Source: Eubacteriales bacterium | GTDB lineage: Bacteria > Bacillota > Clostridia > Oscillospirales > CAG-272 | Reading direction: 5' to 3' | DNA length: 64,000 bases | NCBI GenBank assembly: GCA_045586225.1 | Contig: JAZMZX010000128.1 | Location: 95 to 64,094, forward strand | In this document: piece by piece, positions 14-43,689 of the stretch | How the letters are laid out: every line of letters starts with the position of its first letter | How positions within the stretch are numbered: position 1 is the first letter of the stretch | Notes under the pieces: model-generated | What the model saw: the letters and a program-made list of their open reading frames with translations, nothing else | Database searches by the model: none | Told to the model about the DNA's origin: nothing | Position numbers and translations under genes: made by a program

Positions 14-1204
14 ATGAGCGATGATGATTTCAAACCTGTTTACGATATGTTTGCGTTAAGCGGTGTTGTTGAAATTTTTGAAGAATCTCATATGAATGAG
101 ATAATTTCGGTCAACGGTTCAAGTCCGGCTTATGTTTATCTTTTTGCAAAAGATAAAAGAATCGGTGTACTTACATCGGGAGGCGACGCCCCCGGAATGA
201 ACGCTGCAGTGCGTGCCGTTACACGTTCCGCTATCGAGCGCGGCGTTGAGGTCGTGGGAATATATAAGGGCTATCGCGGCCTTATCGACAACGAAATGAA
301 GACCTTCTCATACCGTGACGTTTCCGGTATCCTTAACGAGGGCGGCACCGTCCTCTATTCCGACCGCTGCCACCGCTTCCGCTCTCTTGAGGGTCAGCAG
401 GCGGCTGCAAAGACCTGCCGCGAAAACGGCATCGACGGCATTATCGTTATCGGCGGAGACGGTACCTTCCGAGGCGGCGTTGACCTGACGGCTCAGGGCA
501 TCCCCACCATTGGCATTCCTGCCACCATCGACAACGATATCACCTCCACAGACTACACCATCGGCTTCGACACCGCATCAAACACCTGTCTTTCCATGAT
601 CGACCGTCTCCGCGACACCTGCGAATCTCACGCACGTGCAAACGTTGTTGAGGTTATGGGACGTGACGCCGGCTACATTGCCCTTGAGGTGGGCATCTCC
701 GTAGGTGCCATCGGCATCGCCATCAAGGAGATCCCCTTCAACGAGGAAGAGCTTATCGAAAAGATCCAGATCGGACGCGACGGCGGCAAGCGCCACTACA
801 TCATCGTCGTTGCCGAGGGACTCGGCGACTATTCCGAGCGCCTTGCAAAGCTCATTCCCGAAAAGACCGGTGTTGAGACCCGCTTTGCACGTCTCGGTCA
901 CGTGCTCCGCGGCGGCTCCCCCACACTCCGTGACAGAATGCTCGCCACCCGCATGGCAGACAAGGCTGTTGAATGCCTTCTCGCAGGCGACAGCAACCTT
1001 GTTATGTGCGAGAGCAACGGTAAGATCGAGCCCATGGATATCACCTACGCCCTCCGTCTCGACCAGATGTACAAGGGCAAGCTGAAGGACGGCGATCTCA
1101 AGCCCTACTCCCTGGCCGACATCACCGAGATGCAGCAGATATGCAACGAAAAGCGCGCATACCTGAAAAATCTCTACGACGTTGCAAACAGACTTTCCAA
1201 ATAA
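14..1204 (+). CDS. pfkA: ATP-dependent 6-phosphofructokinase carrying an anomalous 47-codon N-terminal extension
   Basis: 396-aa ORF. From residue ~49 it has canonical PfkA blocks KRIGVLTSGGDAPGMNAA, IGGDGT, PATIDNDI, MGRDAGYIAL and LGHVLRGG. There is no ATG/GTG/TTG where MKRIGVL would normally start; in-frame ATGs occur only at 14, 47 and 92. Confidence 0.85.
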   Translation: MSDDDFKPVYDMFALSGVVEIFEESHMNEIISVNGSSPAYVYLFAKDKRIGVLTSGGDAPGMNAAVRAVTRSAIERGVEVVGIYKGYRGLIDNEMKTFSYRDVSGILNEGGTVLYSDRCHRFRSLEGQQAAAKTCRENGIDGIIVIGGDGTFRGGVDLTAQGIPTIGIPATIDNDITSTDYTIGFDTASNTCLSMIDRLRDTCESHARANVVEVMGRDAGYIALEVGISVGAIGIAIKEIPFNEEELIEKIQIGRDGGKRHYIIVVAEGLGDYSERLAKLIPEKTGVETRFARLGHVLRGGSPTLRDRMLATRMADKAVECLLAGDSNLVMCESNGKIEPMDITYALRLDQMYKGKLKDGDLKPYSLADITEMQQICNEKRAYLKNLYDVANRLSK

Positions 1205-5965: not shown

Positions 5966-6526
5966 TTATCTCACCATGGTTTCCTCAACGTTCTTTCTGG
6001 TGAGCACCAGGAAGATCACGCTGACACCGGCATTCACGATACCGAACACAAGCACCTTCAGTATCACGCCGAGGATAGCGGAGCCTGTGAGAAGATAGAA
6101 GCCCGAATCCATGATATAAAACTGCTCGATGCCCATAGCGCCGCCGAAAGCGAAGCCGAAGATGGAGAAGAAGATCATATACGGTATCTGGAATATTACA
6201 CCGACCGCCATTCTCAGAAGGGTCTCCTTCAGAATATTTTCCTTCAGATATTTGATGACGGAAAACTCCCCGTTGCGAAGCGCCTCCTTGATGGAGGTCC
6301 TGTATTCAATGTAGGAAGTTTCAAATTTCGATATCAGCGCGATAAGGAATGCATCAACGAAAACGTTGAATCCGATGAGGGTCAGCATTGCGCGCCCGGG
6401 CGCGTCGAGCCACATATAGGTAACGGCGTTTGAAAGCAAAAGGCCGTATGCAAACATTGAAATGATATGCGCAAGAGCGAGAACTCCCACCCATTTAACA
6501 CATTTTCTGAAGATCTCTTTTTTCAT
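5966..6526 (-). CDS. Polytopic membrane protein, family C (copy C2)
   Basis: 186 aa with ~5 hydrophobic helices and RBS aggag. Paralogue of 6564-7127 (TSYIEYRTSIKEALRNGEFS, FQIPYMIF, RKNVEETMV). Confidence 0.6.
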   Translation of the reverse strand: MKKEIFRKCVKWVGVLALAHIISMFAYGLLLSNAVTYMWLDAPGRAMLTLIGFNVFVDAFLIALISKFETSYIEYRTSIKEALRNGEFSVIKYLKENILKETLLRMAVGVIFQIPYMIFFSIFGFAFGGAMGIEQFYIMDSGFYLLTGSAILGVILKVLVFGIVNAGVSVIFLVLTRKNVEETMVR

Positions 6527-6563
6527 AAGTAACTCCTTATATCAGTCGTCCCCGATATGGGGA

Positions 6564-7127
6564 TCAAAGCATTGAATCTTCCACGTTTCTCTTGGCGAAA
6601 AGGATGACAACTACCGTAAATATAATGTTTATGATGCCGAAAGTCAAGCCTTTGAGAAGCATCGCCAAAAAAGGCACGTGGGTAAGAAAATAGAAAAACG
6701 AATCCATTGCGTAAAAATCCATGAACTTAGCAAGCGAAGGGGACAAAAAGCCTACGCCCGCCGCGTTTACGATGGCATATGGTATCTGAAACAGAACGTA
6801 TATCCCGGCTTTGAAGAGGGATTCCTTGAGCAGCCACCTTTTGAGCTCGCCCGCGATCGAAAACTCTCCCGCCTTTAAGGCATCACGCATTGCGTACCGA
6901 TATTCGACGTACGTGGTCTCGCTGTAGGCGAGGATGGCGGTGAAGCAGCTCTGGAGAAAAAGGCTGTAGCAGGCGAGCAGCATCAGCGCCGGCACCTTCA
7001 TCTGATCGAGATACAGGTGCGCGAACACGTTTGAAACCGTCATCGCATAGGTGAACATCGAAACAAAATGAACGATGAAGAGTCCAGCCGTCCAGTGCAC
7101 CAGCCTTTTGAAAAGCTTATGATCCAT
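6564..7127 (-). CDS. Polytopic membrane protein, family C (copy C1)
   Basis: Paralogue of 5966-6526 (TTYVEYRYAMRDALKAGEFS, FQIPYAIV, KRNVEDSML). Start moved to ATG 7127 (RBS gggaga 6 nt upstream) rather than tracked 7142. Overlaps the upstream gene by 11 nt. Confidence 0.6.
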   Translation of the reverse strand: MDHKLFKRLVHWTAGLFIVHFVSMFTYAMTVSNVFAHLYLDQMKVPALMLLACYSLFLQSCFTAILAYSETTYVEYRYAMRDALKAGEFSIAGELKRWLLKESLFKAGIYVLFQIPYAIVNAAGVGFLSPSLAKFMDFYAMDSFFYFLTHVPFLAMLLKGLTFGIINIIFTVVVILFAKRNVEDSML

Positions 7128-7749
7128 AATTTTCTCCCACATCTTCCGTCAACAATATGGAATGCTTGCATTTGTCGCATACTCTGTCGGATTTTTCGTT
7201 TTCTTCTCCGCAGATAACGCATTTCACCACATCGCTGTCGCTTATCACCTGAAGATATTTCGTTCCGTACACGTGGAGCACACGGGTACCCACTCTGTAA
7301 TCGGAAATAAATGATTCAAAGATATCGGCGTCGGTGGTATCGCAGGCGGTGAAGGAGACCTTCATACCGTTCTGAAGCTTCACTATCACCGTGAGCACGT
7401 GTCGGTATTCCGACATTTTTGAGCCGTAGCCGTCAAAGCCCGTCTTATAATTGGCACCATTCATTTTACTTTGAATGACCGTTTTCGTTTTGTGCTCAAC
7501 AACCTCGCCGCACCAGGTTGAATCTATCAGCTTCACAGGGACGCCCGTCACGATAAGCACGATCAGCGACGGGAGAGCATACATGATCACGGCGTAGGAC
7601 GTGCCCTTTTCAAGTATTGCGTCAAGGTTCATCGTCACGCCCGTGATCACCGCCGCGAGAAGCAATGCGCAAACGGTCACTCTTGCCAATACACGGATCA
7701 GAACGTAACGCTTTATGTCTTTTGGGATCTTGATCGTCTGCATAGCCAA
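7117..7749 (-). CDS. Two-TM protein with DUF2500-like domain and C-terminal zinc ribbon (copy A')
   Basis: 210 aa with two N-terminal helices, a beta-rich middle and CVICGEENEKSDRVCDKCKH. Paralogue of 9070-9687. GGAGG lies 7 nt before TTG 7749 (ATG 7743 is an alternative). Confidence 0.6.
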   Translation of the reverse strand: MAMQTIKIPKDIKRYVLIRVLARVTVCALLLAAVITGVTMNLDAILEKGTSYAVIMYALPSLIVLIVTGVPVKLIDSTWCGEVVEHKTKTVIQSKMNGANYKTGFDGYGSKMSEYRHVLTVIVKLQNGMKVSFTACDTTDADIFESFISDYRVGTRVLHVYGTKYLQVISDSDVVKCVICGEENEKSDRVCDKCKHSILLTEDVGENYGS

Positions 7750-7762
7750 ATAATTTCCTCCG

Positions 7763-8413
7763 TCAATAATTCAATCTGTTTTTATACATATCGTCTAACT
7801 TTTTTCGTTCCATAAGTGATCCTTCGAGCATCCTTTTGTTTCTCAAAATCTCTTTTTTGAACTTTTTCAAAAAAGCAAATTCATATAAAGCAAAATATAG
7901 AATATAGATCAGCAAAAACACCGCCGTATCCATCGGTGTGGCTTCGCGTCCTGCAACGATCTGATCATATTTTCCCAGCGGAACGACATATAAAATTGAA
8001 TATAAATGATAGGTCACAGGAGATGTGATTAGTCCATATTTGGTATACACAGTTGGCAAAAGTCCAACCACGAACCTGACGGCTTCACCCAATGCCGCTA
8101 TTGAAATAGCTTTCACATACCACTTATTCAGATCGTCGGAAAGAGAATAAAACCTTGTGACTATATGACGCAAAGCTCTTGTCGTCAGTATCCACGGCAA
8201 AATGATGGCAATGGGAATGAGCGTCAACGCCTGCAAAAGCACGTGCAGCGCCATGCCTTGCATGATAGACAAAAGCTGCGCCACAAGTGTGATGATATAA
8301 AACGTAGCGGCGTTTGAGATAACGGTGATGCCCATAAATTTTATTTTGTCTTGCCTTGTAACTTCGCGTTCAAAATAAAAATCTCGATTGATTATTTTGT
8401 CATCGTGTGTCAT
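7763..8413 (-). CDS. Polytopic membrane protein, family B (copy B2)
   Basis: 216 aa with RBS aggag and a charged C-terminal tail. Paralogue of 8428-9051 (YVVPLGKYDQIV vs YISPLGLHDRIF). AT-rich relative to its flanks. Confidence 0.6.
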   Translation of the reverse strand: MTHDDKIINRDFYFEREVTRQDKIKFMGITVISNAATFYIITLVAQLLSIMQGMALHVLLQALTLIPIAIILPWILTTRALRHIVTRFYSLSDDLNKWYVKAISIAALGEAVRFVVGLLPTVYTKYGLITSPVTYHLYSILYVVPLGKYDQIVAGREATPMDTAVFLLIYILYFALYEFAFLKKFKKEILRNKRMLEGSLMERKKLDDMYKNRLNY

Positions 8414-8427
8414 AGCTTTCTCCTTTA

Positions 8428-9051
8428 TCAGAAGTACTGTGTATTTTTATACTTTTCTTCTCTTCTACGGAGTGTTTCTTCCTGTTCAGCAGCAAGCTTT
8501 TTATATCCCCTATAGTACAAATAAATCAGCAATGCGCTCAAGAGAACATCAAAGATTCCATACACAAGGAAATCCGTTGCCGTGTACTGAAGCTTGTTGA
8601 ATATACGGTCGTGCAGTCCCAAAGGTGAAATATATAACGAATCAAACAACACAAATGAAGGATATGCCAAAAGCTGACCGAATTTATAATTGACATAGAA
8701 TCCAAAGGGTATGATCCTTAGTATCGTCCAGATGATCTCGCCGGGTAAAGCATACAAAAGAAAATCACTAAGCTGCGTTTTCTTATCAGGAACTTCTTTT
8801 TCGTAAAAATCAAACGGAACGTTTTTGATCAACATCTTCATGATCGTTGCCGGAACTATCGTCCATGCAACGATGATTATCAGATATGCACCAACAGTTG
8901 CGATAGATAGCTCCGTAATTTTGAAAATGCGCGTCATCACGATCTCGGACCAAACGTAAACAAGGATCATCATAACGGCAAAGGCACCTATCCTTGATAT
9001 AAGCGTATAGAAAAAATACTTTACGCGGTCCGCTAAACTAACACGATCCAT
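8428..9051 (-). CDS. Polytopic membrane protein, family B (copy B1)
   Basis: 207 aa with RBS gggagggg, ~5 helices and a charged tail AAEQEETLRRREEKYKN. Paralogue of 7763-8413. Confidence 0.6.
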   Translation of the reverse strand: MDRVSLADRVKYFFYTLISRIGAFAVMMILVYVWSEIVMTRIFKITELSIATVGAYLIIIVAWTIVPATIMKMLIKNVPFDFYEKEVPDKKTQLSDFLLYALPGEIIWTILRIIPFGFYVNYKFGQLLAYPSFVLFDSLYISPLGLHDRIFNKLQYTATDFLVYGIFDVLLSALLIYLYYRGYKKLAAEQEETLRRREEKYKNTQYF

Positions 9052-9069
9052 CTTCCCCTCCCACTTTGA

Positions 9070-9687
9070 TTAAAACCACATGGTTTCGTCTTTTTTGATG
9101 AGGCGGAGCGTATGTCCGCAGGTCTCGCAGACCTCCACGCCCTCCTCGTTATCGTAGCCGCAAACGACACAGTTCATAGTGTCGGGGTTGTTGTCCGGGT
9201 CGATCTGATAATATTCCGCGCCGCGGATGTGAATGATGCTCACGCCGGGGCGGTAATTCTTCAGGTAAAAGGAAAGGGCCACTCCGTCGCGGGAGTCGTC
9301 TGCCCTGCCCTCAAAGGCAACGCACCGCTCAAGCCTTCCATCCTCTGTTTCAACGTCCACGTAAACGGTGTTAACCCAGTAGCGGTTACGTGTGCCGCCC
9401 GGGGAGCGGAGGGTGGTGGCCACCTTCACATCTCTGATAACACCTGCCCACGTTCTGTCCTTCAGAAGTTCGGGAATTCCCGACAGGAAGTACACGGCAA
9501 CGAGGACCCCCAGATACACCGGCACCGTCCACAGGCGGACCTTCGTCCAGAATTCCGCCGCGTACCAGGCGAGGGCGAAAAGCGTGAAGCACACGATAGC
9601 GGCAGTCTTTACGACGCGCCTTGCGATACGTTTGCCAACGTGCTTTTTCACGTCTTGCGGTATGATTATTTCCGTCTTTTTTTGCAT
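9070..9687 (-). CDS. Two-TM protein with DUF2500-like domain and C-terminal zinc ribbon (copy A)
   Basis: Start set to ATG 9687 (RBS gaggaaag), which aligns MQKKTEIIIPQDVKKHV with MAMQTIKIPKDIKRYV of copy A'. Zinc ribbon CVVCGYDNEEGVEVCETCGH. Confidence 0.6.
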   Translation of the reverse strand: MQKKTEIIIPQDVKKHVGKRIARRVVKTAAIVCFTLFALAWYAAEFWTKVRLWTVPVYLGVLVAVYFLSGIPELLKDRTWAGVIRDVKVATTLRSPGGTRNRYWVNTVYVDVETEDGRLERCVAFEGRADDSRDGVALSFYLKNYRPGVSIIHIRGAEYYQIDPDNNPDTMNCVVCGYDNEEGVEVCETCGHTLRLIKKDETMWF

Positions 9688-9709
9688 GTAAGCTTTCCTC
9701 ACAGTCTCT

Positions 9710-10075
9710 TTACCACGAACGTTCAAAGCCAAGGTACCGCGTTCCCTGAAAGGTCAGGCTGCCCACATCTCCTTCTGCAAGCATACCGTACTCTTCGCCG
9801 CCAACACACAGCTCGAGCCGATCACTGCTTTCAAACTGAAAGGTAACGTAATAGGTGGTATGGGTATGATGATAATGATGGCCTCCGGCACCCGTGCTGC
9901 GGTGACGAGTAACGTTGGTCCTTTTTGACACGATAGTTGCGGGAACGGTCAGGCGGGGAGAATTATTGTTTCTGTGCCATTGACCAATATCCTTCACAAC
10001 CGTAAAAATGAAAGTGCCGATCACAAAGGCAAAAACCGCTGTAAACATAACGAAAAATATCGATTCAAATCCCAT
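9710..10075 (-). CDS. DUF2500 family single-TM protein
   Basis: 121 aa with an N-terminal helix, then WHRNNNSPRLTVPATIVSKR...YYVTFQFESSDRLELCVGGEEYGMLAEGDVGSLTFQGTRYLGFER. This matches my memory of the DUF2500 consensus. RBS gggaga. Confidence 0.6.
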   Translation of the reverse strand: MGFESIFFVMFTAVFAFVIGTFIFTVVKDIGQWHRNNNSPRLTVPATIVSKRTNVTRHRSTGAGGHHYHHTHTTYYVTFQFESSDRLELCVGGEEYGMLAEGDVGSLTFQGTRYLGFERSW

Positions 10076-13421: not shown

Positions 13422-13585
13422 AAGATGTCCCTCTTATTATTCTGCGCGGGCACCGACGGTGTACTGCGCAAGAAACGATATAGTTTGCACATATTAAGTT
13501 TATTATACCCCAAAAATCGACTTCGGTCAATAGCTGATGGCCCACTCCATCCATATAAGATTTATAAAATATGCGATTTTTTTGT

Positions 13586-13613
13586 TTGCACTCGGCAAAA
13601 TATGTGCTATAAT
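13586..13613 (+). promoter_or_regulatory. Candidate sigma-A promoter of nrdR
   Basis: TTGCAC (13586-13591), 16-nt spacer, TATAAT (13608-13613) with TGc extended -10. Confidence 0.55.
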
Positions 13614-13687
13614 GTATGAAGCGAGGTATGTCGTCTCGTAAAACCAACGATAAAACTACTCTCTTCACAGGAGCCGGAGGTCAACTT

Positions 13688-14143
13688 ATGAAATGTCCCG
13701 TTTGCGGATATCCCGAAAGCAAGGTCGTAGATTCAAGACCCGCAAGTGATTTTTCAAGTATCAGACGTCGCCGCGAGTGTCTTCAGTGCCAGCGCAGGTT
13801 CACCACCTACGAGGTTGTTGATACCGTTCATCCCGTCGTTATAAAGAGAGACGGCTCCAAGGAGCTGTTCGATAAAAATAAGCTTCTTGTGGGAATCATC
13901 AAGGCTTGCGAAAAGCGCCCCGTCAAGGCTGAGCTTATCGCAAACGATATCGAAGCCGCCCTCAACGGTTCTTTGAACAGAGAGATCTCCTCCGCAGACC
14001 TTGGAGAGATGGTGCTCGACAGGCTGAAGCACGAGGACCCTGTGGCATACGTGCGCTTTGCCTCCGTCCACAGAGAATTCAAGGACATGGAGACCTTCAT
14101 TGAAGAGATAAGAAAGCTTCGCTCAGAAGAAAAACCCGAATAA
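13688..14143 (+). CDS. nrdR: Transcriptional repressor NrdR
   Basis: MKCPVCGYPESKVVDSRP...RRRRECLQCQRRFTTYE zinc ribbon plus an ATP-cone. ATG 13688 with RBS ggagg; the tracked start 13616 is rejected. Confidence 0.9.
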   Translation: MKCPVCGYPESKVVDSRPASDFSSIRRRRECLQCQRRFTTYEVVDTVHPVVIKRDGSKELFDKNKLLVGIIKACEKRPVKAELIANDIEAALNGSLNREISSADLGEMVLDRLKHEDPVAYVRFASVHREFKDMETFIEEIRKLRSEEKPE

Positions 14144-14158
14144 GATCAAAAGCTATCT

Positions 14159-14188
14159 CGGGCTGATGTAAAAGTCAGCCCGTTTTTA
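14159..14188 (+). terminator. Intrinsic terminator after nrdR
   Basis: Stem cgggctga / tcagcccg (14159-14182) followed by ttttt. It ends 12 nt before the next start codon. Confidence 0.6.
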
Positions 14189-14199
14189 CCGCAATCAGA

Positions 14200-16176
14200 A
14201 TGGAAGAAAACAAAAATCAAAATACCCAAAGCATAAAGGAGCGGCTTTCCTCCGTGCCCGCGGTGGTGTGGCTGACGGTGCTTGCCTCCGTTATCATTAT
14301 CGCGGCAACGGTCACTGCGCTCTGCCTCAGCCGGCAAGGAGCCCCCACCGACACGGACGCCACCGGCACGGAAAGCGGATATCAGAGCAGCGACACCGTA
14401 CTGACCGAGGATTCGGTTTATCCGCCTCCCGGTGACGGCAGTGAAACGGAAACCGAATCGCAAACAGACAAGGACACCGAAGACGGTACTGACACGGAAG
14501 CCGACACCGAAACGGTCACCGACACCGAAGGTGAAAGCGAAACCGAAACTGAAACTGAAACTGAGACCGAGCTTCCCGAGACCGTTCTCGGCGAGCTTTC
14601 GGTAAAGGGCGATTACGTTCCCTCCGACGACGCTCTCACGGCACTTTACGATGCCCTCGAGAACTACGGCTACAAGGTGGGCTTCACCGCCGTTGACATC
14701 AAAACGGGGATGACCCTTTCCTACAACGCAAAAACGAGATTCGAAAGTGCCAGCATCATAAAAGCCGCGTACGTATATTACGTATGCACCCTTATCGATA
14801 AGGGCGAGGCCTCCCTCGACGACGTTATCGTTTACACGGAGGCAGATGCCGTGCACCGCAACGGCACCATCGGAAAATCCGCCTTCGGCACCGAATACTC
14901 CCTCCGCGACGTTATCAAATACACGGTCAAGAAAAGCGATAACGAGGGCTACTACATGCTGGTACGCACCTTCGGACGCAGCGGATACGATAAGTTTGTG
15001 AAGTCATTGGGCGCCGGGTCCTGCACCATCTCATCGTCCAGATGGCCTAAGGTGAAGCCTGCAGACTTCGCTCTCGTCTGGAAACAGATATACAACTACA
15101 GAAACGATTCCGACACAGGCGAGTGGCTCTACGACCTTTTCCTGAATATCGATTATAAGCACTTTTTCAAGGACGCCCTTTCACTGAAAACCGCAAACAA
15201 GGCAGGCTGGAACGACGAAAGCTACAACGACAGCGGCATCGTTTACGGCGACAGGACCTACATATTCGTGCTCCTTGCCGACGCAAGCTATTACGATTCG
15301 TCCACGAAGCTTTATAACAAGATCATCAAAGCCGTGAACGCTATGATGTCCGAGTACGCAGACAGCATCGACGAAGACGGCACCGTCACAACGGAGCCCG
15401 AGCCCGAGACCACAAAGCCCGAGCCCGAGACCACAAAGCCCGAGCCCGAGACCACAAAGCCCGAGCCTGAAACCACGAAGCCCGAGCCTGAAACCACGAA
15501 GCCCGAGCCTGAAACCACGAAGCCCGAGCCCGAAACTACAAAGCCCGAGCCCGAAACTACAAAGCCCGAGCCCGAGACCACAAAGCCCGAGCCTGAAACT
15601 ACGAAGCCCGAGCCCGAAACTACGGAGCCCGAGCCCGAAACTACGGAGTCGGAATCCGTGACCACGGAAACCGAAACCGAGACCGAGACCGAGTCGGAAA
15701 CGAAAACCGAAACCGATGCGGAGATAACGGAAACGGAGCCCGAAGCGGTGGTTCCCGAGGAAACGCCCTTCCCCGCTGCCATGACTGCGGAGCAGTATGA
15801 AAACCTCATAAACGAAGCAGAAAAGTATCTTGGCAAGAAATACACCTGGGGCGGCTCCACACCCGCCACCGGCTTCGACTGCTCAGGATTCATTTCCTAC
15901 GTTGTGAACAACTGCGGAAACGGATGGAGCATCGGACGCAAATCCTCCAAGACCCTCTATTCCATCTGCACAAAGGTAAGCAGCAGCGAAGTGCAGCCGG
16001 GCGACCTTGTGTTCTTCACCGGCACATATGACACAAAGGGCGTCAGCCACGTGGGCTTTTACGTTGGAAACGGAAAAATGCTCCACTGCGGCGACCCGAT
16101 CTCATACGTTTCTCTCAGCATCGATTACTGGCAGGATCATTTTTACTGCTACGGCAGATTCAATTTTCTCACATAA
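14200..16176 (+). CDS. Membrane-anchored fusion: class-A beta-lactamase/PBP-fold domain + PEPETTK linker + NlpC/P60 endopeptidase
   Basis: TM helix [22 protein letters not shown] and an acidic T/E/D-rich segment. Serine-hydrolase motifs SIIK (SxxK), SDN and KAG. Twelve 7-aa repeats. The NlpC/P60 domain has DCSGFISYV (Cys) and [17 protein letters not shown] (His). Confidence 0.75.
15397..15648 (+). repeat. 12 x 21-bp in-frame tandem repeat encoding PEPETT[K/E]
   Basis: Counted unit by unit. Units 1-3 and 9 are cccgagcccgagaccacaaag. Units 4-6 are cccgagcctgaaaccacgaag. Units 7-8 are cccgagcccgaaactacaaag. Unit 10 is cccgagcctgaaactacgaag. Units 11-12 are cccgagcccgaaactacggag. Confidence 0.95.
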
Positions 16177-16214
16177 AAAAACACCCCGCAGCTTCGGTTG
16201 CGGGGTTATTTTTC
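16175..16214. terminator. Bidirectional terminator between convergent genes
   Basis: Stem ccccgca / tgcgggg (16184-16205) with an A-run before and a T-rich run after. Confidence 0.6.
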
Positions 16215-16219
16215 TTTAT

Positions 16220-17740
16220 TCAGTTACGGGGCGCAAACCAGTCTTCAAGCTTATCGTTTGCCTTATTATCCAGTTTGCCGAACTGCTTTTCCACGTTCAT
16301 CTCCGGATCGAGAATGGCTTCTCTTATAAGCTCGAAGGTGGATGCCGTGATCCTTTCGCTGACGGTGCCCAGCCCCTTGTCGAAGCAGAAGAAGGGCGTT
16401 CCGTACACAAGCTCGATAAGCGGGAGCACGCCGCTGTGGCTCACCGTATTATAGTGATGATAGTCAACGTAGGCGTCGCGCAGATAGCCCATGGATGCCG
16501 CAGACATTGCGCGCAGAAGCACCGACGCGCCGTCAGGATCGACCGTGTTAACGGGCACCGCAAGCACGAGGGTGTCGTTGGAAACGAAGGCGCGGTATTC
16601 GTCCTCTGCCGCCGTTTTGGGCACGGGAAGCACCGTCCAGCCGAAGCCGGCAGCGGCAAGCCTGTTCATATCTCCAAGGGAGCCTAAGTGAAGCGCGGTC
16701 TCTGCAGCAAGAAATACATCGATGGCCGCCTTCTCCTCCGTCGAGCTTACAAGGGTCAGCTCGGAGAAGATTCGTTGGCAAATGTCTATAACCGTATGAG
16801 CCTCCTCGGGGAACATCACCTCGGGAGTTTCGTTTCGTTTGTTGTCCACCATGGAAAGCCCCGCGGACGCGGAGACGATATCGGTGATGCCTCCGTCCTC
16901 TGTCAAAGGATAACCGGTGGAAAGTCCCCCTGCGGCAGCAACGGACATAAGCTCATCCCACGTCCACTGACCGGACTTGGCGAGAGACTCAAGATCGCCC
17001 TCGTATATACCGCGAAGAAGATCAAGATTCGCATAAACGCAGGAAATATTGTCCGGATTCACGGTTGCCGCGCCGATAACGCCATAGTCGCCGTAGCCGG
17101 CAGAAAATGCGGCGGCGCCGTAGGGATTGAAATATTCCTCCTCAAGAGAGAAGAACGGCAGCTGTCGTAGATTATATAGGCAGTTTTCCTTATAGAGAAG
17201 CGCCAGCTCCTTCTGGGTCACAGCAAGGAGGTCGGCGTAATATTCCTCCGCTTCAAGGGCTGCTTCGATATCGATGATCATCTGATCCACAGTCGTTACA
17301 ACATAGTGGAGCTCGCAGGCGAAGCGCTCCTCAACCATGCGATTGCGTTCGTAGACGCTTGCCGAATACGTATCCTTTTCATCGAGGTCGGAGGAAACGA
17401 AGAGCACTCCAAGCTCGTCTGTGGCGGTGGTCCTGATAAACACCGTCTGGCTGTCGAAGCTGTGCTCGCCTATCTCATCGAGATACGCCTTCGCCTCCTC
17501 AAGGCCGGTATATTCATAAATGGGCACGTCCTTTTCGGTTTCCGATTCCGGTTCCGTGTCGGCGGCGGAGGTGCTGCCCGGCTCCGTACTTTCCTCCTCG
17601 GAGAAGGTGCCCTCAAAGGGGAAAAGCTCCTCAAGGATGCTGTCGTAGTGGATGTCCACGATGGAGCAAGAGGTCAGGGCTGCCGTCAGAGACAGCGTAA
17701 GAAAAAGCGCAAATATTCTTTTCGATCTGCTGATTTTCAC
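16220..17740 (-). CDS. Lipoprotein, extracellular solute-binding-protein-like (orphan, no adjacent permease genes)
   Basis: Signal peptide with lipobox LTAALTSC and an acidic S/T/E linker. Size and GQWTWDELMSVAAAG-type segment resemble ABC substrate-binding proteins; the family call is tentative. Confidence 0.4.
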   Translation of the reverse strand: MKISRSKRIFALFLTLSLTAALTSCSIVDIHYDSILEELFPFEGTFSEEESTEPGSTSAADTEPESETEKDVPIYEYTGLEEAKAYLDEIGEHSFDSQTVFIRTTATDELGVLFVSSDLDEKDTYSASVYERNRMVEERFACELHYVVTTVDQMIIDIEAALEAEEYYADLLAVTQKELALLYKENCLYNLRQLPFFSLEEEYFNPYGAAAFSAGYGDYGVIGAATVNPDNISCVYANLDLLRGIYEGDLESLAKSGQWTWDELMSVAAAGGLSTGYPLTEDGGITDIVSASAGLSMVDNKRNETPEVMFPEEAHTVIDICQRIFSELTLVSSTEEKAAIDVFLAAETALHLGSLGDMNRLAAAGFGWTVLPVPKTAAEDEYRAFVSNDTLVLAVPVNTVDPDGASVLLRAMSAASMGYLRDAYVDYHHYNTVSHSGVLPLIELVYGTPFFCFDKGLGTVSERITASTFELIREAILDPEMNVEKQFGKLDNKANDKLEDWFAPRN

Positions 17741-17773: not shown

Positions 17774-18841
17774 TTAATTGCTCTCTTCTGTATCGGCACC
17801 GTTTATAACGCCGTCGATGCCGTCGGCGCTGTCAAGCTTCGCCGTTACGATGAAGCCGCCGGCATTGTTGCCGGAAATAACGTACTCCGCCCCCTTGGGG
17901 ATCTCGATGGGAGTCTGTTCACTCTCGGACACGGGTGCGGAATAGATCATATAGATCTCACCGCCGTCCGTCATGTAGTAGTAGGGGGCTTCCGCCGTGG
18001 CGGTGTCGATAAGCTCGATATATTCCTCCATGCAGAGGTTTTCGTCATACATTATCTCCGCGTGAGGCGCACCCACGTATCTGTAGTGCCAATACTCGTA
18101 TGAAATACCCGTAAGGTGCACCTTGTCGGCCTGATAGCGCTGGATGAAGCCGTAGCGCCAGCAGTTTGCGGGCATCCATGCAGGGTCGTAGTTGTCGCCG
18201 TAGGAGGCGATGTCGAGAGCATAGCCCGTGTGGTGCTCGCTATAGCCGGGGATGGCAACGTACTTATACGCCTCCTCCTCGCCTACCGAGTCGATCCTGT
18301 TCTGGAGAATGGAATTCTGATCGTCGTAGGTTCTGTGTCCGCTGTTTATGACGACCTTGTTATCCTCGGTGGCTTCATAGTAATCGTCCATAAAGGCGTT
18401 AAGGTGAGAGAGCACGGAATGTGCGCAGGAAATATTCACCGTTGCGAGGCCATAGCTTTTGGACTTCTCCTCGTGCTGATAGAGGAACACTATCTCCTCC
18501 TCGATATCGAAATCGTAAACGGTGGAGTTATTCACCAAAATGAGAAATCCGCGGCTCACGTCGGAGCTTGAAACGTACACGGTGTCGAATCTATCCTCCG
18601 CCGTCGTTTCCTCCTCGGTGTCCTCCCCCTCCTCGGTGTCAACGATGATAACGTTGCCCTCCTCGTCGGTTTCGGTGACGGGAGCCTTCGTTTCCGTTTC
18701 AAAGGGGTCCACCTCGCGGTTGCACACGAAATAAACGGAAAGCACGATGACAGCCGCAATGAATATGGTGAGCACTATCATTCCCGAAGAAAAATCGGGG
18801 CCTACGGTATCGTTATATCTTGTCACGCGTCGTTTTCCCAT
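17774..18841 (-). CDS. VanY/M15B-family D-alanyl-D-alanine carboxypeptidase, membrane-anchored
   Basis: NSGHRTYDDQ, SEHHTGYALD and EYWHYRYVG motifs, with TM IVLTIFIAAVIVLSVYFV. Start set to ATG 18841 (ggag 8 nt upstream). Confidence 0.75.
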   Translation of the reverse strand: MGKRRVTRYNDTVGPDFSSGMIVLTIFIAAVIVLSVYFVCNREVDPFETETKAPVTETDEEGNVIIVDTEEGEDTEEETTAEDRFDTVYVSSSDVSRGFLILVNNSTVYDFDIEEEIVFLYQHEEKSKSYGLATVNISCAHSVLSHLNAFMDDYYEATEDNKVVINSGHRTYDDQNSILQNRIDSVGEEEAYKYVAIPGYSEHHTGYALDIASYGDNYDPAWMPANCWRYGFIQRYQADKVHLTGISYEYWHYRYVGAPHAEIMYDENLCMEEYIELIDTATAEAPYYYMTDGGEIYMIYSAPVSESEQTPIEIPKGAEYVISGNNAGGFIVTAKLDSADGIDGVINGADTEESN

Positions 18842-18938
18842 AACGTCTCCATTCTGTAAACTGATGTCTCTTTGTAATTTGAAAATGTGAGATGACACAG
18901 CGGTGCCTCTCACATTTTCTTTAAGTGATTATTGTGTT

Positions 18939-40775: not shown

Positions 40776-40805
40776 TAGCATAGTATTAAAAATCGGGGTG
40801 TGACG

Positions 40806-42224
40806 ATGAGAGAACAGTTTTCACGTCTCCATCTCGGCGGAAAGGTCTCCGTATTCGTTTTCGTCATCACCGCGATCCAGCCGTTTATGGACGTTATTTC
40901 GTATTTTTGCATAAGCTTCGGCGACGGAAATACTCCGCTTTTCCTCCGCGGACTTTTGCTCACCGCTATTCTCGCGGCAGGCTGCGCGGCTTCGGAAAGC
41001 AAGCGGCTTTACCTCATCATGGCGGCGATGCTGTTTTCCCACGCCGCCCTGCACCTGACGGCAGCCACCATCATATACGGTCTTTCCGTGGAGGAGCTTG
41101 TCTCCGATGCATCCAATCTCATAAGGATATATTCGTTTCCCATAACGGCAGCTTCATTTGTTTCCCTTTTGAAAAGGGAGCCGGAGGCCGTCCGCAGCGC
41201 CGAAAGGGGCGCCCTCTCCGCGCTTTTCGTCATCGTTTTCGTTGAGGCGCTTGCCGTTATCACGGGGACAGACCCGCACTCCTACCCAAACAAGGCTATC
41301 GGGGTGCTCGGCTGGTTTTACTTTGCAAATTCCCAAAGCGCCATTCTTTCGATGCTTTATCCAATCGCGCTGATCTCAGCCCTCACCTGTCGGCGGCGCA
41401 GAGCCTTCGCCGTCACCCTGAGCGCGGGGGGCGCCGCGCTCTTTTTCCTTGCAACGAGGCTTGCGTATTTTTCCCTTGTGTTCACGCTCTCGCTCCTTGC
41501 GGCAGTGTGCCTTTATCTGAGCAAAAGGCGTGGCGCGCCGCTGAAAAAAACGGCTCTCATCCTTGCCGCCGCGCTCTTTTTGTCTGTGGCGGCGCTTCCT
41601 GCCTCACCAATGGCGGAAAACATCAGGCAAACGGGCCAAAATGCCGTGAAAAAGCAGGAGCACATCGATTCTCTTGCCGAGTCAGGCGGCACCCGCGCCG
41701 TGTACGCACACTATCTTCCCGCGCTGGTCGACCGCTTCGGCTTTCGGCGCACCGAAAGCCTCTATGGAGGCTCCACCCGTGTGGACGACGTTTGCGACGT
41801 GAGGCGGATGAAGATAGCATACTGCCGTCTTTTAACGGAGGACTTCCCCGCCGCCGCCATCGCAGGCCACCCAATAAGCGAGATGACTCACGGAGGCAAA
41901 AACCACGACGTTGAAAACGACCTTAACGGTATATTCTACCTGACGGGAGCCTCGGGGCTGTGCCTTCTTTTATCCTTTTTCCTGTATTTCGCTTTTCGCA
42001 TCCTGCGCTTTTTGCTCCGGGACCGGGGAAAGGCAATATCGCTGCGCCGTGCGGCGTATATTTCCTCGCTTCTTTTCGGATGCATGCACGCATACTTCAC
42101 CGCAGGGGTGCTCCGCCGTCCCAATGCAAGCTTTTTCTTAGCGCTCACCCTGGCGCTTATTTATTCCGAAACAAACAAAAGAAACACGAAAGGTACCGCT
42201 TATGATGAAAACGGAAGCTTTTGA
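40806..42224 (+). CDS. O-antigen ligase/polymerase-like polytopic membrane protein (copy 1)
   Basis: At least 10 helices. Wzy_C-like segment NSQSAILSMLYP...TRLAYFS and C-terminal HDVENDLNGIFYLTGASGL. Start is ATG 40806 or GTG 40800. Paralogue of the next gene. Confidence 0.5.
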   Translation: MREQFSRLHLGGKVSVFVFVITAIQPFMDVISYFCISFGDGNTPLFLRGLLLTAILAAGCAASESKRLYLIMAAMLFSHAALHLTAATIIYGLSVEELVSDASNLIRIYSFPITAASFVSLLKREPEAVRSAERGALSALFVIVFVEALAVITGTDPHSYPNKAIGVLGWFYFANSQSAILSMLYPIALISALTCRRRRAFAVTLSAGGAALFFLATRLAYFSLVFTLSLLAAVCLYLSKRRGAPLKKTALILAAALFLSVAALPASPMAENIRQTGQNAVKKQEHIDSLAESGGTRAVYAHYLPALVDRFGFRRTESLYGGSTRVDDVCDVRRMKIAYCRLLTEDFPAAAIAGHPISEMTHGGKNHDVENDLNGIFYLTGASGLCLLLSFFLYFAFRILRFLLRDRGKAISLRRAAYISSLLFGCMHAYFTAGVLRRPNASFFLALTLALIYSETNKRNTKGTAYDENGSF

Positions 42225-43689
42225 ACCGAATACTCTCATAAGGCATTTGCCGCAGGCGGTGTACGTCCTTTTCGTTATCCAGCCCGTGATGGACGTTATC
42301 TCCTATTTCACGGCAAAGCTCGGCGTGTCAAACGCCCCCACCCTTGCCCTCCGCCTTCTCGTGCTCGCTGCCACCGTTTCCGTGGGCTTTGCGGTCTCAA
42401 AAAGAAGAACGATATATTACACCGCCGCCGCGGTGGCTCTCATTATCGGCGCGGGTCACGTATTCGCTTCCCTTCAGTTTGGCTACGCCGACCCCTTCGG
42501 CGACCTGACGAATTACGTCCGCGTGCTGCTCATGCCCTTCACCGCCATCGCTCTCATATCGGCAATGAAGGCAAACAAGGCTGCCTACGAGGCTCTGAAA
42601 AAGGCTATGGTCACAGTGCTCTTCATCATCATTGCCGTGGAGCTTGCCGCCTCCGTCAGCGGCACAGAGCCCCACACCTATGCCGACGGAGAGGGCTTTA
42701 TCGGCTGGTTTGCAAACACAAATTCTCAAAGCGCCATACTCACCGCTGCTGCACCCGTTGCGGTTTTATACGTTTACGAAAAGAAGGGCTGGCGAAGCCT
42801 TCACTTTATTGCCACCCTTATTTTGGCATGCCTTGCGCTCTCTCTTTTCGGCACGCGGCTTTGCTATGCGGGCATGGCGGCAATGACGCTGGGTCTTGCC
42901 GCGTCTATTATCATTATCCGCCCGAAAAACTGCCTCCGTGCCCTTTCATTTATTTTTGCCGCTGTGCTCTTCACGTGCGCGATACCGCTCTCGCCTATGG
43001 TGAGACATCAGACGAAATATAACGATTTTCAGTCGGAGCGGCAGGAAAACGTGGATAACATCCTTTCACGCCCTCCTGCATCCGATACGTCCCAGGAAAG
43101 CGCCCCCGCAGAGCCCGACAGCGGCACCGACACCGCTCCCACGAAAAAAGAGCTTATCGAAAGACTCACTCCCATATATGAGTTTTACGCTGCCGATTTC
43201 GTTGCCATCTTCGGAATTGAAGAAACTATAGAAATGTTCGATTACACCAGCGACATTTATAAGATCACGGCAACGCGCCCGAAAAAGCTTATTTTCGCTC
43301 AGCTTCTGATGGAAAACTCTCCGCCCTCCTCTCTCTTTTTCGGCATTGAGCTTTCAAGATTCACAGTGGACGACGCAATATACGACGTTGAAAACGATCT
43401 GCACGGCATCTACTATCTTTACGGTGCCGTGGGTCTTGCCGCCATGCTTGCCTTCATCGGATATTTCATTTATCTCATAGGGGAAGCCCTCGTCCGCGAC
43501 AGAAGGCGCTACTTCACACTTGATGCTGCCGCCTGGGGCATTTCCCTCGTTATGTGTCTCGGCCACGTATACTGCACCGCAGGCGTGCTGCGCCGACCGG
43601 GCGCATCCGTTTACCTTGCCGCCATCCTCGCCGCCGTTTACTTTCTGACGCGGATCGCGGATAAAGAAGAAACGGAGGCAGTCCGATGA
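42202..43689 (+). CDS. O-antigen ligase/polymerase-like polytopic membrane protein (copy 2)
   Basis: Shares IQPVMDVISYF, NSQSAILTAAAP, TRLCYAG, YDVENDLHGIYYLYGAVGL and GVLRRPGAS with copy 1. Has an extra Ser/Asp/Thr-rich loop. Confidence 0.5.
   Translation: MMKTEAFEPNTLIRHLPQAVYVLFVIQPVMDVISYFTAKLGVSNAPTLALRLLVLAATVSVGFAVSKRRTIYYTAAAVALIIGAGHVFASLQFGYADPFGDLTNYVRVLLMPFTAIALISAMKANKAAYEALKKAMVTVLFIIIAVELAASVSGTEPHTYADGEGFIGWFANTNSQSAILTAAAPVAVLYVYEKKGWRSLHFIATLILACLALSLFGTRLCYAGMAAMTLGLAASIIIIRPKNCLRALSFIFAAVLFTCAIPLSPMVRHQTKYNDFQSERQENVDNILSRPPASDTSQESAPAEPDSGTDTAPTKKELIERLTPIYEFYAADFVAIFGIEETIEMFDYTSDIYKITATRPKKLIFAQLLMENSPPSSLFFGIELSRFTVDDAIYDVENDLHGIYYLYGAVGLAAMLAFIGYFIYLIGEALVRDRRRYFTLDAAAWGISLVMCLGHVYCTAGVLRRPGASVYLAAILAAVYFLTRIADKEETEAVR

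Follow-up and report, generated by a model that had tools for sequence, protein, structure and literature searches.

The window analysed here is a stretch of 64,000 nucleotides that contains an open reading frame whose product joins two catalytic domains, a serine peptidase domain of the class A beta-lactamase fold (domain 1) and an NlpC/P60 cysteine peptidase domain (domain 2). Domain 1 is preceded by a hydrophobic segment and an acidic spacer and is separated from domain 2 by a repeat linker (Table 1). The start of the frame is ambiguous between the ATG at 14200 and a GTG at 14254; the latter has AAAGGAG upstream and is the start used in the NCBI call (P0001, 640 aa), and no conclusion rests on the choice. 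The gene belongs to a conserved order of M23, nrdR, lactamase-like gene, lipoprotein, VanY and pnp. Since nrdR orthologues are 150-151 aa long, the true start of nrdR is probably the internal Met at ~13691. The hairpin between nrdR and the reading frame is kept in the closest relatives.

Table 1. Coordinates of the two-domain gene, its parts and its flanking features in the window.
Feature	Position	Strand	Details
nrdR	13616..14143	+	Immediately upstream of ORF 14200..16176
Terminator-like GC hairpin with T-run	14159..14187	+	Between nrdR stop codon and ORF start
Whole ORF	14200..16176	+	658 aa; ATG start; stop codon within coordinates
Hydrophobic segment	14254..14331	+	Residues 19-44; Kyte-Doolittle
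Acidic T/E/D-rich spacer	14332..14574	+	Residues 45-125; 81 aa
Class A beta-lactamase-fold, PBP-A-like serine peptidase domain (domain 1)	14575..15381	+	Residues 126-394
Pfam PF13354 (Beta-lactamase2) match	14680-15276	+	Residues 161-359
SIIK (SxxK); S185 nucleophile, K188 general base	14752..14763	+	Residues 185-188
SDN motif; S246-D247-N248	14935..14943	+	Residues 246-248; family alignments A1/A3
Omega-loop neck remnant; S280-R281-W282-P283	15037..15048	+	Alignment to 4c75
KAG (KxG motif); K334-A335-G336	15199..15207	+	Residues 334-336; family alignments A1/A3
P/E/T-rich linker	15382..15765	+	Residues 395-522; 128 aa; net charge -31
NlpC/P60 (MEROPS C40) cysteine peptidase domain (domain 2)	15766..16173	+	Residues 523-658
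Pfam PF00877 (NLPC_P60) match	15832-16152	+	Residues 545-651
Triad codons C561, H617, H629	15880-15882, 16048-16050, 16084-16086	+	In DCSG, SHVG, LHCG
Bidirectional terminator-like hairpin	16183..16206	.	Between ORF and convergent lipoprotein gene

The product has a single hydrophobic segment (residues ~19-44), in which the maximum 19-residue mean reaches 2.53 on the Kyte-Doolittle scale. By its sequence this segment could serve as a signal-anchor or could belong to a long signal peptide of the Gram-positive kind, and cleavage by signal peptidase I at a V-T-A site is possible. An earlier sequence-only reading had proposed an N-terminal membrane anchor; the hydrophobic segment is present and may be that anchor or a cleaved signal peptide. 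No lipobox occurs in residues 19-44, and lipobox-like VIGC or LFSC sequences are present in the orthologues P0003, P0004 and P0125. The acidic spacer described in that reading is clearly recognizable, with 21 Thr, 16 Glu and 11 Asp residues and a net charge of -25. It is also fast-evolving, with a dN/dS of 0.58 between the window gene and its 70%-identical orthologue. The string LPETV (residues 125-129) was considered as a sortase motif and rejected, as it is internal, is not accompanied by a sorting signal at the C-terminus and is replaced by LPEIV in the orthologue.

Domain 1 scores 110.2 bits with Pfam PF13354, whose cut-off is 22 (E=1e-31, profile positions 1-213 of 214), and AF2 models residues 125-394 with a pLDDT of 95.2 and a pTM of 0.92. 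Both results bear out the class A/PBP-type serine hydrolase fold, composed of an alpha/beta and an all-alpha domain, that had been suggested by the SIIK, SDN and KAG motifs. Foldseek matched the model to over 1000 class A and PBP-A chains with a probability of 1.00 and TM-scores of 0.72-0.83; the top scores (0.80-0.83, rmsd ~3 A) belonged to PBP-A of T. elongatus (2J7V, 2J8Y, and 2J9O) and those of bona fide class A beta-lactamases were 0.72-0.77. In the family alignments A1 and A3, which extend down to 24% identity, five motif residues never vary: Lys of SxxK, Ser and Asp of SDN, and Lys and Gly of KxG. The nucleophilic Ser and the Asn of SDN show a conservation of 90% or more; one protein (P0010) carries Cys at the position of the nucleophile. 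The Lys of the KxG motif is followed by Ala in place of the usual Thr or Ser, a substitution that could weaken carboxylate binding. E249, which directly follows the SDN motif (SDNE), was tried as an alternative catalytic base and set aside. Although invariant in the close family, it is not kept in distant members, and by homology it occupies position 133, which faces away from the active site.

The omega loop of domain 1 is ~13-16 residues shorter than that of class A beta-lactamases and contains no equivalent of the catalytic Glu or Asn. The distance from SxxK to SDN is 61 residues versus 60 in TEM-1, whereas that from SDN to KxG is 88 residues versus 104, or 16 shorter. What is left of the loop reads SRWPKV (family consensus SRWPxV), and in the alignment to the ancestral enzyme PNCA (4C75) its Pro falls on Glu166 ('SSRW-P' vs 'LDRW-E'); no acidic residue is found in the omega-loop region between residues 270 and 287. 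It is at this loop that sequence alignments of domain 1 to true beta-lactamases end. Their N-terminal half is collinear with domain 1 through SDN (E down to 8e-12 by single sequence and 6.5e-19 by profile), and the NCBIfam class A model bla_class_A (NF033103), whose cut-off is 200, reaches 67.3 bits over profile positions 6-131 of 257 only. The fold and the three active-site motifs are thus common to domain 1 and class A beta-lactamases such as TEM-1, PenP, and PNCA, whereas domain 1 lacks Glu166 and Asn170, has KAG in place of KT/SG, and is fused and probably tethered. Because the omega loop is reduced and Glu166 is absent, we expect domain 1 to be not a beta-lactamase but a DD-peptidase that would bind penicillin without destroying it. 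The DD-peptidase or beta-lactam-reactive module of the sequence-only reading is therefore favoured, and the beta-lactamase activity that its fold might imply is disfavoured.

The closest structural counterpart, PBP-A, likewise combines the class A fold and the SxxK, SxN, and KxG motifs with the absence of the omega-loop catalytic Glu, and its activity as a penicillin-sensitive DD-carboxypeptidase/DD-endopeptidase has been demonstrated (PMC11189452). However, the structural alignment gives ~16% identity, the SRWPKV remnant is particular to the family of domain 1, and PBP-A is a cyanobacterial periplasmic protein with another N-terminal region and without an NlpC/P60 fusion, acidic spacer, or repeat linker. 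No PBP-A chain is found among the best 60 sequence-search matches of domain 1, which comes from a gut Clostridia host and does not belong to the cyanobacterial PBP-A sequence family. Its own family includes uncharacterised class-A-like 'serine hydrolases' of Firmicutes, namely 3CJM from E. faecalis, 4HES from Veillonella, and at least 606 metagenomic relatives; among the matches listed, 3CJM is the only solved structure that aligns in sequence over all of domain 1. Close family members have the same layout of anchor, acidic spacer, and PF13354 domain, but those compared are single-domain proteins and none carries NlpC/P60. The metagenomic class A 'precursor' LRA-5 (8EO5) shares the class A fold, likewise has no acidic residue at position 166 and confers no beta-lactam resistance as wild type. 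Its omega loop is of full length and can be activated by two substitutions, whereas in domain 1 the loop itself is deleted.

The linker between the domains contains a tandem repeat of 21 nt in 11.8 copies (15395-15641, 93% matches). The repeat had been read as 12 units of PEPETTK; the number of units holds, and their composition is 10 PEPETTK and 2 PEPETTE. In the sister gene (P0002) the unit is PEPETTA and the copy number differs, with at least 19 units. As the 128 residues of this flexible linker permit independent action of both domains, the sequential trimming of one and the same stem peptide that was proposed earlier is not implied by the architecture.

The NlpC/P60 assignment of domain 2 is well founded, with a PF00877 match of 85.9 bits against a cut-off of 23 (E=2e-24, profile positions 1-103 of 105). 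Like that of PF13354, this score lies well beyond the curated threshold and does not reflect a chance likeness of motifs. Domain 2 resembles the Tn916-like hydrolase of C. difficile (4HPE/9UBF; E=1e-26, 45% identity over 122 residues for 4HPE) and CwlT of S. aureus (4FDY; E=5e-23). C561, H617, and H629 correspond to the C/H/H of these structures, and none of the three positions varies among the 87 nearest NlpC/P60 relatives. These relatives are 55-65% identical to domain 2, and 58 of them carry NF045974 (conju_CD1108). In a neighbor-joining tree, built without support values, the window domain and its P0002 counterpart group with the CD1108-family proteins at distances of 0.29-0.34, as compared with 0.53-0.68 to SH3-type chromosomal NlpC/P60 proteins; the mean distance of the pair to the CD1108 group is 0.34, versus 0.23 within the group. 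Capture from a mobile element is the likeliest origin to judge from these kinships. The NlpC/P60 segment gives no compositional sign of recent horizontal acquisition (GC3 0.68 vs 0.72 in domain 1), and neither another NlpC/P60 or lactamase-like copy nor a donor element occurs in the window.

Proteins of the CwlT and Tn916 Orf14 type (4FDY, 4HPE, and 9UBF) also possess two catalytic domains. Their partner domain is an N-terminal lysozyme/muramidase, whereas in the window protein it is a PBP-like peptidase, and they reside on conjugative elements and are needed for transfer, whereas the window gene is chromosomal and syntenic. CD1108-family proteins, the nearest sequence kin of domain 2, likewise have NlpC/P60 at the C-terminus, but their N-terminus is a CD1108 domain with a TM segment to which the window protein has no significant match. 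Neither a lysozyme-like nor a CD1108 N-terminal domain appears among its Pfam matches or its best 25 NCBIfam matches. By analogy with the NlpC/P60 half of CwlT, described as a DL-endopeptidase by Xu et al. (2014) as cited in PMC9324163, domain 2 is expected to be a DL-endopeptidase that cuts the gamma-D-Glu/diamino-acid bond.

Among the proteins compared, domain 1 and NlpC/P60 occur together only in the window protein (P0001) and its 70%-identical relative (P0002). No other two-domain protein was present among 116 word-index matches, in the best 150 matches of an exhaustive phmmer scan of 1.84 billion cluster representatives, or in the best 120 of the 606 family members; the word index is not exhaustive, given that the 606-member search did not recover P0001 or P0002. 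A scan of JGI metagenomes with the fused protein pair returned 220 pattern matches and 0 relatives. The literature searched contained neither an architecture of NlpC/P60 with a beta-lactamase or DD-carboxypeptidase nor a functional study of the PF13354 family of domain 1. The claim that this architecture is uncharacterised holds for that literature. The rarity itself is that of sequence searches, and PF13354 and PF00877 may have been joined independently in distant proteins elsewhere.

A lactamase-like gene is located downstream of nrdR in ~14 related Clostridia genomes. The set comprises 13 loci from a scan of species representatives together with L002 and L003, giving 15 genomes (14 besides the window's own), and the only fused locus other than that of the window is the one encoding P0002. 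P/T/E-rich tails are already present in the nearest unfused relatives (L005, P0003, P0004, and P0125). Gene fission or loss was considered as well and rejected, because no separate or decayed NlpC/P60 gene lies within +/-6 kb of the unfused orthologues. Between the window gene and its 70%-identical orthologue, dN/dS is 0.099 in domain 1 and 0.092 in domain 2 at a dS of ~1.1-1.2; both domains are under purifying selection.

On balance, we consider it moderately probable that the product hydrolyses peptidoglycan stem peptides outside the cytoplasm by means of its two catalytic domains, one of PBP-A type and the other an NlpC/P60 module of the CwlT lineage that was added late. The protein would probably be tethered to the membrane. 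Domain 1 retains the acylation machinery (S185/K188, S246-D-N, and K334-A-G) and has lost the omega-loop segment that bears the deacylating Glu166 and Asn170. It would then be acylated both by D-Ala-D-Ala termini and by beta-lactams, acting as a DD-carboxypeptidase and/or DD-endopeptidase to which penicillin is bound rather than hydrolysed. Domain 2 would act as a Cys-His-His peptidase on the gamma-D-Glu/diamino-acid bond. The 81-aa spacer and the 128-aa linker may set differing and adjustable distances of the two domains from the membrane, which would enable both to work independently on a thick Gram-positive wall. As for the order of events, domain 1 presumably represents an old gene, inherited vertically and placed downstream of nrdR, in which a disordered C-terminal tail was the first to arise; the NlpC/P60 module, kin of the wall hydrolases of conjugative elements (CD1108 family), was then probably captured at its end.

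Several other explanations have to be set against this one. It is very unlikely that domain 1 is a genuine resistance-conferring class A beta-lactamase that has merely been joined to an autolysin. It has the fold and three motifs of class A enzymes, and many NCBIfam models for class A beta-lactamases match it with E-values between 1e-18 and 1e-6, but all of these matches are far under the cut-offs and cover the N-terminal half only, the shortened omega loop offers no Glu or Asn equivalent, and the gene is chromosomal, conserved, and situated among cell-wall genes. The class-A-like LRA-5, which carries Val166, confers resistance only when Glu is introduced together with Y69Q (PMC12777564). An unlikely but more serious alternative, raised already in the sequence-only reading, is that domain 1 is a targeting or sensing module that binds, or is transiently acylated by, D-Ala-D-Ala stems of nascent wall or beta-lactams. 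It would in this way position or regulate the NlpC/P60 endopeptidase, which would be the sole true hydrolase. Acylation motifs are also kept in sensor and decoy proteins, so their conservation is no proof of peptidoglycan turnover. With these motifs kept and the deacylation Glu absent, long-lived acyl-enzymes are expected; the Ala of KAG also counts in favour of this alternative, as do the unfused relatives, which bear the tail only and show that the domain can work without a partner catalytic domain. However, the family (606 members or more) consists overwhelmingly of single-domain proteins, and its ancestral role was thus not the targeting of NlpC/P60. Moreover, a flexible linker of this length provides poor positional control, the product has no signalling output domain, and low-molecular-weight PBPs, in particular PBP-A, turn over peptides without an omega-loop Glu (PMC11189452).

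The remaining explanations concern the origin of the gene. Its domain 2 is nearest to Tn916-like and CD1108-family hydrolases, and the product could on that account be a CwlT-like mobile-element hydrolase that opens the wall for conjugation. This is extremely improbable in view of the absence of the CD1108 N-terminal domain among significant NCBIfam matches, the conserved chromosomal synteny in ~14 genomes, the lack of conjugation genes among the window ORFs scanned, and the single NlpC/P60 copy in the window. The sequence does come from a metagenome-assembled genome and the junction adjoins a 250-nt tandem repeat, and the fusion might accordingly reflect mis-assembly across the repeat or read-through in the gene call, or the gene might be a pseudogene in decay. 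We regard this as next to negligible. GCA_964464905.1, an independent MAG, has the same in-frame fusion in a protein of 70% identity, with another repeat unit (PEPETTA) and copy number; dN/dS is ~0.1 in both domains at a dS above 1; the gap to the downstream gene is 44 nt with a terminator hairpin, too small for a separate gene start; and GC3 is uniform along the gene. The fusion is a genuine, rare, and lineage-specific domain accretion.

Modular enzymes with two catalytic domains are familiar among peptidoglycan hydrolases, and the window protein is built from ordinary parts and is not a new kind of system. The pairing of DD-peptidase and DL-endopeptidase chemistry on one tethered polypeptide, which is what the proposed activities would amount to, was not found described in the literature searched. 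The accretion appears to be traceable stepwise, from a single-domain gene through a disordered tail to a catalytic module with kin on conjugative elements. In addition, the family of domain 1 is often automatically labelled as class A beta-lactamase, and resistome surveys score PF13354 matches as beta-lactamases. The fusion hints that the role of this large and unstudied Clostridial family is the processing of peptidoglycan peptides and not the destruction of antibiotics, which bears on such surveys.

A bolder reading, which we think improbable, takes the fusion as both a 'Rosetta stone' and a molecular ruler; the widespread tethered class-A-fold 'serine hydrolases' of gut Clostridia would be DD-peptidases of peptidoglycan stem peptides, and the enzyme would in this lineage have become a depth-resolved remodeller with two catalytic domains. 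If so, the PBP-like domain would be the one that trims pentapeptides or cross-links close to the membrane, and the captured DL-endopeptidase would be held farther out by a linker of variable length (12 units here, at least 19 in the sister genome) and cut older wall. Trapping of domain 1 by beta-lactams could then link the behaviour of the autolysin to penicillin exposure. Since linker length varies naturally, the proteins would offer a convenient system in which to study what determines reach across a thick wall.

A single uninterrupted reading frame directly downstream of nrdR encodes a class-A-fold domain of penicillin-binding protein (PBP) type (domain 1, residues 126-394) joined to an NlpC/P60 domain (domain 2, residues 523-658). 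The sequence-only reading had divided this protein into a membrane anchor, an acidic spacer, a lactamase-fold domain, a repeat linker and an NlpC/P60 domain, and all of these parts were recovered by Pfam, repeat, hydropathy and composition analyses. The public record of the gene (P0001, 640 aa, 100% identical) begins at GTG 14254, preceded by an AAAGGAG box, and the MEENK... N-terminus is conserved in the fused orthologue P0002. The start may be either ATG 14200 or GTG 14254, and the architecture results are independent of this choice. Translation of the tandem repeat gives ten PEPETTK and two PEPETTE units, which lie in the 128-residue linker (net charge -31) between the two domains. The neighboring VanY-like protein and lipoprotein likewise have acidic T/E-rich spacers after their anchors; thus, this spacer seems to be common among the exported proteins of the organism and not peculiar to the ORF.

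Features of the ORF under study and its immediate surroundings
Feature	Position	Strand	Details
Promoter-like site before nrdR	13585-13613		
nrdR	13616-14143	+	mechanical ORF 175 aa; Pfam Zn-ribbon from residue 25; orthologues 150-151 aa
Terminator-like hairpin and T-run between nrdR and ORF	14159-14187		hairpin 14159-14182
ORF under study	14200-16176	+	658 aa
Strongly hydrophobic segment (one)	ORF residues about 19-44		
T/E/D spacer of ORF			81 residues; net charge -25
Pfam Beta-lactamase2	ORF residues 161-359		E=1.2e-31; 110 bits, cut-off 22
21-nt tandem repeat	15395-15641		11.8 copies; between domains 1 and 2
Pfam NLPC_P60	ORF residues 545-651		E=2.2e-24; 86 bits, cut-off 23
Bidirectional hairpin 3' of ORF	16183-16206		
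506-aa lipoprotein	16220-17740	-	LTSC lipobox, then acidic S/T/E spacer; no Pfam match
VanY-like carboxypeptidase	17774-18913	-	

The class-A/PBP fold proposed for domain 1 is backed by its Pfam match and by structural comparison with the PDB. An AlphaFold2 model of residues 125-394, built with a 20-sequence family alignment (mean pLDDT 95.2, pTM 0.92), matched more than 1000 class-A-fold chains in Foldseek. The top TM-scores (0.80-0.83) belonged to PBP-A of Thermosynechococcus elongatus (2j7v, 2j8y, 2j9o), followed by the Veillonella 'class A-like protein' 4hes (0.78-0.81) and the uncharacterised 3cjm and 4ewf (0.75-0.80), while TEM, PenL, GES and other true beta-lactamases reached 0.72-0.77. 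Family alignments with identities down to 24% retain the acylation residues: the SxxK Lys, the SDN Ser and Asp, and the KxG Lys and Gly never vary, and conservation is 90% or higher for the nucleophile Ser and the SDN Asn.

The N-terminal half of domain 1 is collinear with class A enzymes up to SDN, and the alignments end at the omega loop. Here 'SSRW' lies opposite 'LDRW', Pro283 occupies the position of Glu166, the family consensus is SRWPxV, and a stretch of 18 residues contains no acidic residue. SxxK and SDN are 61 residues apart and SDN and KxG 88, against 60 and 104 in TEM-1. The missing acidic residue and the shorter SDN-KxG spacing indicate that the omega loop has largely been deleted, positions 166 and 170 included. 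With the NCBI class A beta-lactamase model the score was 67 bits (cut-off 200), and the match covered only profile positions 6-131 of 257. Domain 1 is thus a class A fold of the PBP type and not of the lactamase type. We know of no characterised member of its family.

PBP-A is a demonstrated penicillin-sensitive DD-carboxypeptidase and DD-endopeptidase, and, according to its authors, lack of the omega-loop glutamate is what chiefly distinguishes it from class A beta-lactamases (PMC11189452). Domain 1 is comparable to it in predicted mode of action but lies outside the PBP-A sequence family, with only about 16% identity. By analogy, domain 1 would be expected to form covalent adducts with beta-lactams and to act on D-Ala-D-Ala termini and/or 4-3 cross-links. 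It is very improbable that domain 1 is a true beta-lactamase, as this is contradicted by the deleted omega loop, the feature on which it fails the defining test of a functional class A enzyme. According to PMC12777564, the class-A-like LRA-5, which carries Val166, conferred resistance only after Glu166 was engineered in with Y69Q. A targeting or sensing role would be compatible with acylation motifs that are retained while the deacylation residue is absent; however, it sits uneasily with the overwhelmingly single-domain make-up of the family, and we consider it unlikely, if still worth bearing in mind. A profile search with trimmed domain 1 returned 606 relatives, and the 120 listed all had PF13354 as their only domain family, with an extra PF00144 match in one.

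On sequence grounds, domain 2 is a predicted intact NlpC/P60 peptidase of conjugative-element lineage. The C-terminal 130 residues matched the NlpC/P60 halves of the C. difficile Tn916-like hydrolases 9ubf and 4hpe (E about 1e-26, 45% identity over 122 residues) and also S. aureus CwlT (4fdy; E=5e-23), with C561, H617 and H629 aligned in these enzymes and invariant across 87 relatives. Among the matches listed in an exhaustive phmmer search of 1.84 billion cluster representatives, the nearest relatives (55-65% identity) were domains at the C-termini of larger proteins. Of the 87 nearest, 58 contain NCBIfam NF045974 ('CD1108 family mobile element protein'), and four, CD1108 relatives, also carry an M23 domain. 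In a simple neighbor-joining tree without support values, the domains of the window and P0002 join the CD1108-type group at distances of 0.29-0.34, against 0.53-0.68 to SH3-type chromosomal NlpC/P60 proteins, and the pair diverges from that group more than the group does internally. The domain 2 segment shows no compositional anomaly. Domain 2 is similar to the hydrolase domains of CwlT/CD1108 proteins, but the ORF protein lacks their N-terminal domains and mobile context. Four metagenomic proteins (P0124, P0128, P0130 and P0164) consist of 4-9 complete NlpC/P60 domains in tandem, with nine in the 1183 aa of P0124.

The setting of the ORF is chromosomal and vertically inherited. It directly follows nrdR on the same strand in every locus examined, and the nrdR/lactamase-like pair is kept in 14 of 14 other loci. 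A divergent M23 peptidase gene lies upstream, and the convergent block downstream comprises the lipoprotein, a VanY-type D-Ala-D-Ala carboxypeptidase, pnp and rpsO; the first two are neighbors in at least 10 related genomes (lipoprotein identity 32-75%). PNPase is 93-99% identical across related genomes and domain 1 only 41-83%, so the lactamase-like gene evolves fast. The real start of nrdR, judging from its orthologues, is probably an internal Met near 13691. The intergenic hairpin is conserved in the closest relatives (L001, L002, L003, L005 and L011), whereas the more distant L006 and L009 have the two genes directly adjoining or overlapping (gaps of 6 and -1). The ORF may be transcribed by read-through from nrdR or from an internal promoter. 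Elsewhere the window carries unremarkable chromosomal genes (for PFK, FtsK, glycoside hydrolases, O-antigen-ligase-like proteins, an EAL/GGDEF protein and RecG), and no conjugation genes were found among the window ORFs scanned. Six consecutive small ORFs without Pfam match (5966-9732, -; 186-220 aa), most resembling multi-pass membrane proteins, form three paralogous pairs (5966/6564, 36% identity; 7117/9070, 26%; 7763/8428, 22%), and both 7117 and 9070 carry a C-terminal CxxC...CxxC. Two adjacent O-antigen-ligase-like membrane protein genes (40800-43689, +; 474 and 495 aa) belong to a gene block that also encodes glycoside hydrolases and DUF5695/DUF5722 proteins.

It is common for wall hydrolases to combine two catalytic domains, as do CwlT (a muramidase and DL-endopeptidase) and the CD1108 relatives with an M23 domain. 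The sequence searches run and the literature searched gave no other case of a PBP-like serine peptidase joined to NlpC/P60; its parts are clear members of the known superfamilies PF13354 and PF00877. Among 116 hits of a word index, which is non-exhaustive (two other searches of it missed the cluster of the query itself), only P0001 and P0002 (70% identical, from the independent MAG GCA_964464905.1) carried both Pfam domains. In the best 150 matches of an exhaustive scan, beyond which distant independent fusions could escape, the self cluster was the sole entry matching both, with the domain content of entries with several matched stretches verified by Pfam; the remaining strong matches were lactamase-like only (P0125, P0118, P0122, P0126 and P0127) or NlpC/P60 only. 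A scan of GTDB species representatives gave 13 loci in Clostridia MAGs, and only that of P0002 is fused. The nearest unfused relatives, L005 (65% in domain 1) and P0003, P0004 and P0125 (56-59%), end in P/T/E/D-rich tails of 100-130 residues without a domain (APDTET-type repeats in L005, 5644-7053; P/T/E-rich low complexity in the others), distant orthologues (41-50%) terminate right behind domain 1, and no NlpC/P60 remnant was found near unfused genes. Therefore, the most parsimonious order is that a tethered single-domain enzyme gained a disordered C-terminal tail, at the end of which an NlpC/P60 module was captured.

The capture is older than the split of the two fused genomes, between which dS is about 1.1-1.2 and dN/dS is 0.099 in domain 1, 0.092 in domain 2 and 0.58 in the spacer. 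The linker has 12 PEPETT[K/E] units in the window and at least 19 P[E/K]PETT[A/T] units in P0002, so its length is evolutionarily labile. That the fusion is an assembly artefact is contradicted by this independent, diverged and selected orthologue and can practically be dismissed. A role of the protein in conjugation, contradicted by the chromosomal synteny, is hardly more credible.

We propose that the protein acts on the cell wall. It would be exported and most likely kept tethered by an uncleaved signal-anchor, although signal cleavage at a V-T-A site is possible; orthologues with a lipobox-like VIGC or LFSC may be tethered by lipid instead. Domain 1 would stand about 80 disordered acidic residues off the membrane, and domain 2 another 128 Pro/Glu/Thr-rich residues outward. 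The literature describes NlpC/P60 domains of the CwlT type as DL-endopeptidases (Xu et al. 2014, cited in PMC9324163). In the proposed model, domain 1 would be a DD-carboxypeptidase/endopeptidase whose substrates are pentapeptide stems or 4-3 cross-links, and domain 2 would be a DL-endopeptidase cutting the gamma-D-Glu/diamino-acid bond, each working independently and possibly at different wall depths. Sequential trimming of one stem by both domains, as suggested in the sequence-only reading, is possible but not favored because the tether is so long.

Other members of the domain 1 family vary further. In P0010 the nucleophile Ser is replaced by Cys (ACTRK, not ASxxK), and P0006 joins the lactamase-like domain with PF14056 (DUF4250). 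A 711-aa protein from a Ruminococcus MAG (L016, 4654-6789) represents a further architecture of the family, with a signal peptide, long N-terminal repeated segments that look all-beta, and a C-terminal lactamase-like domain.
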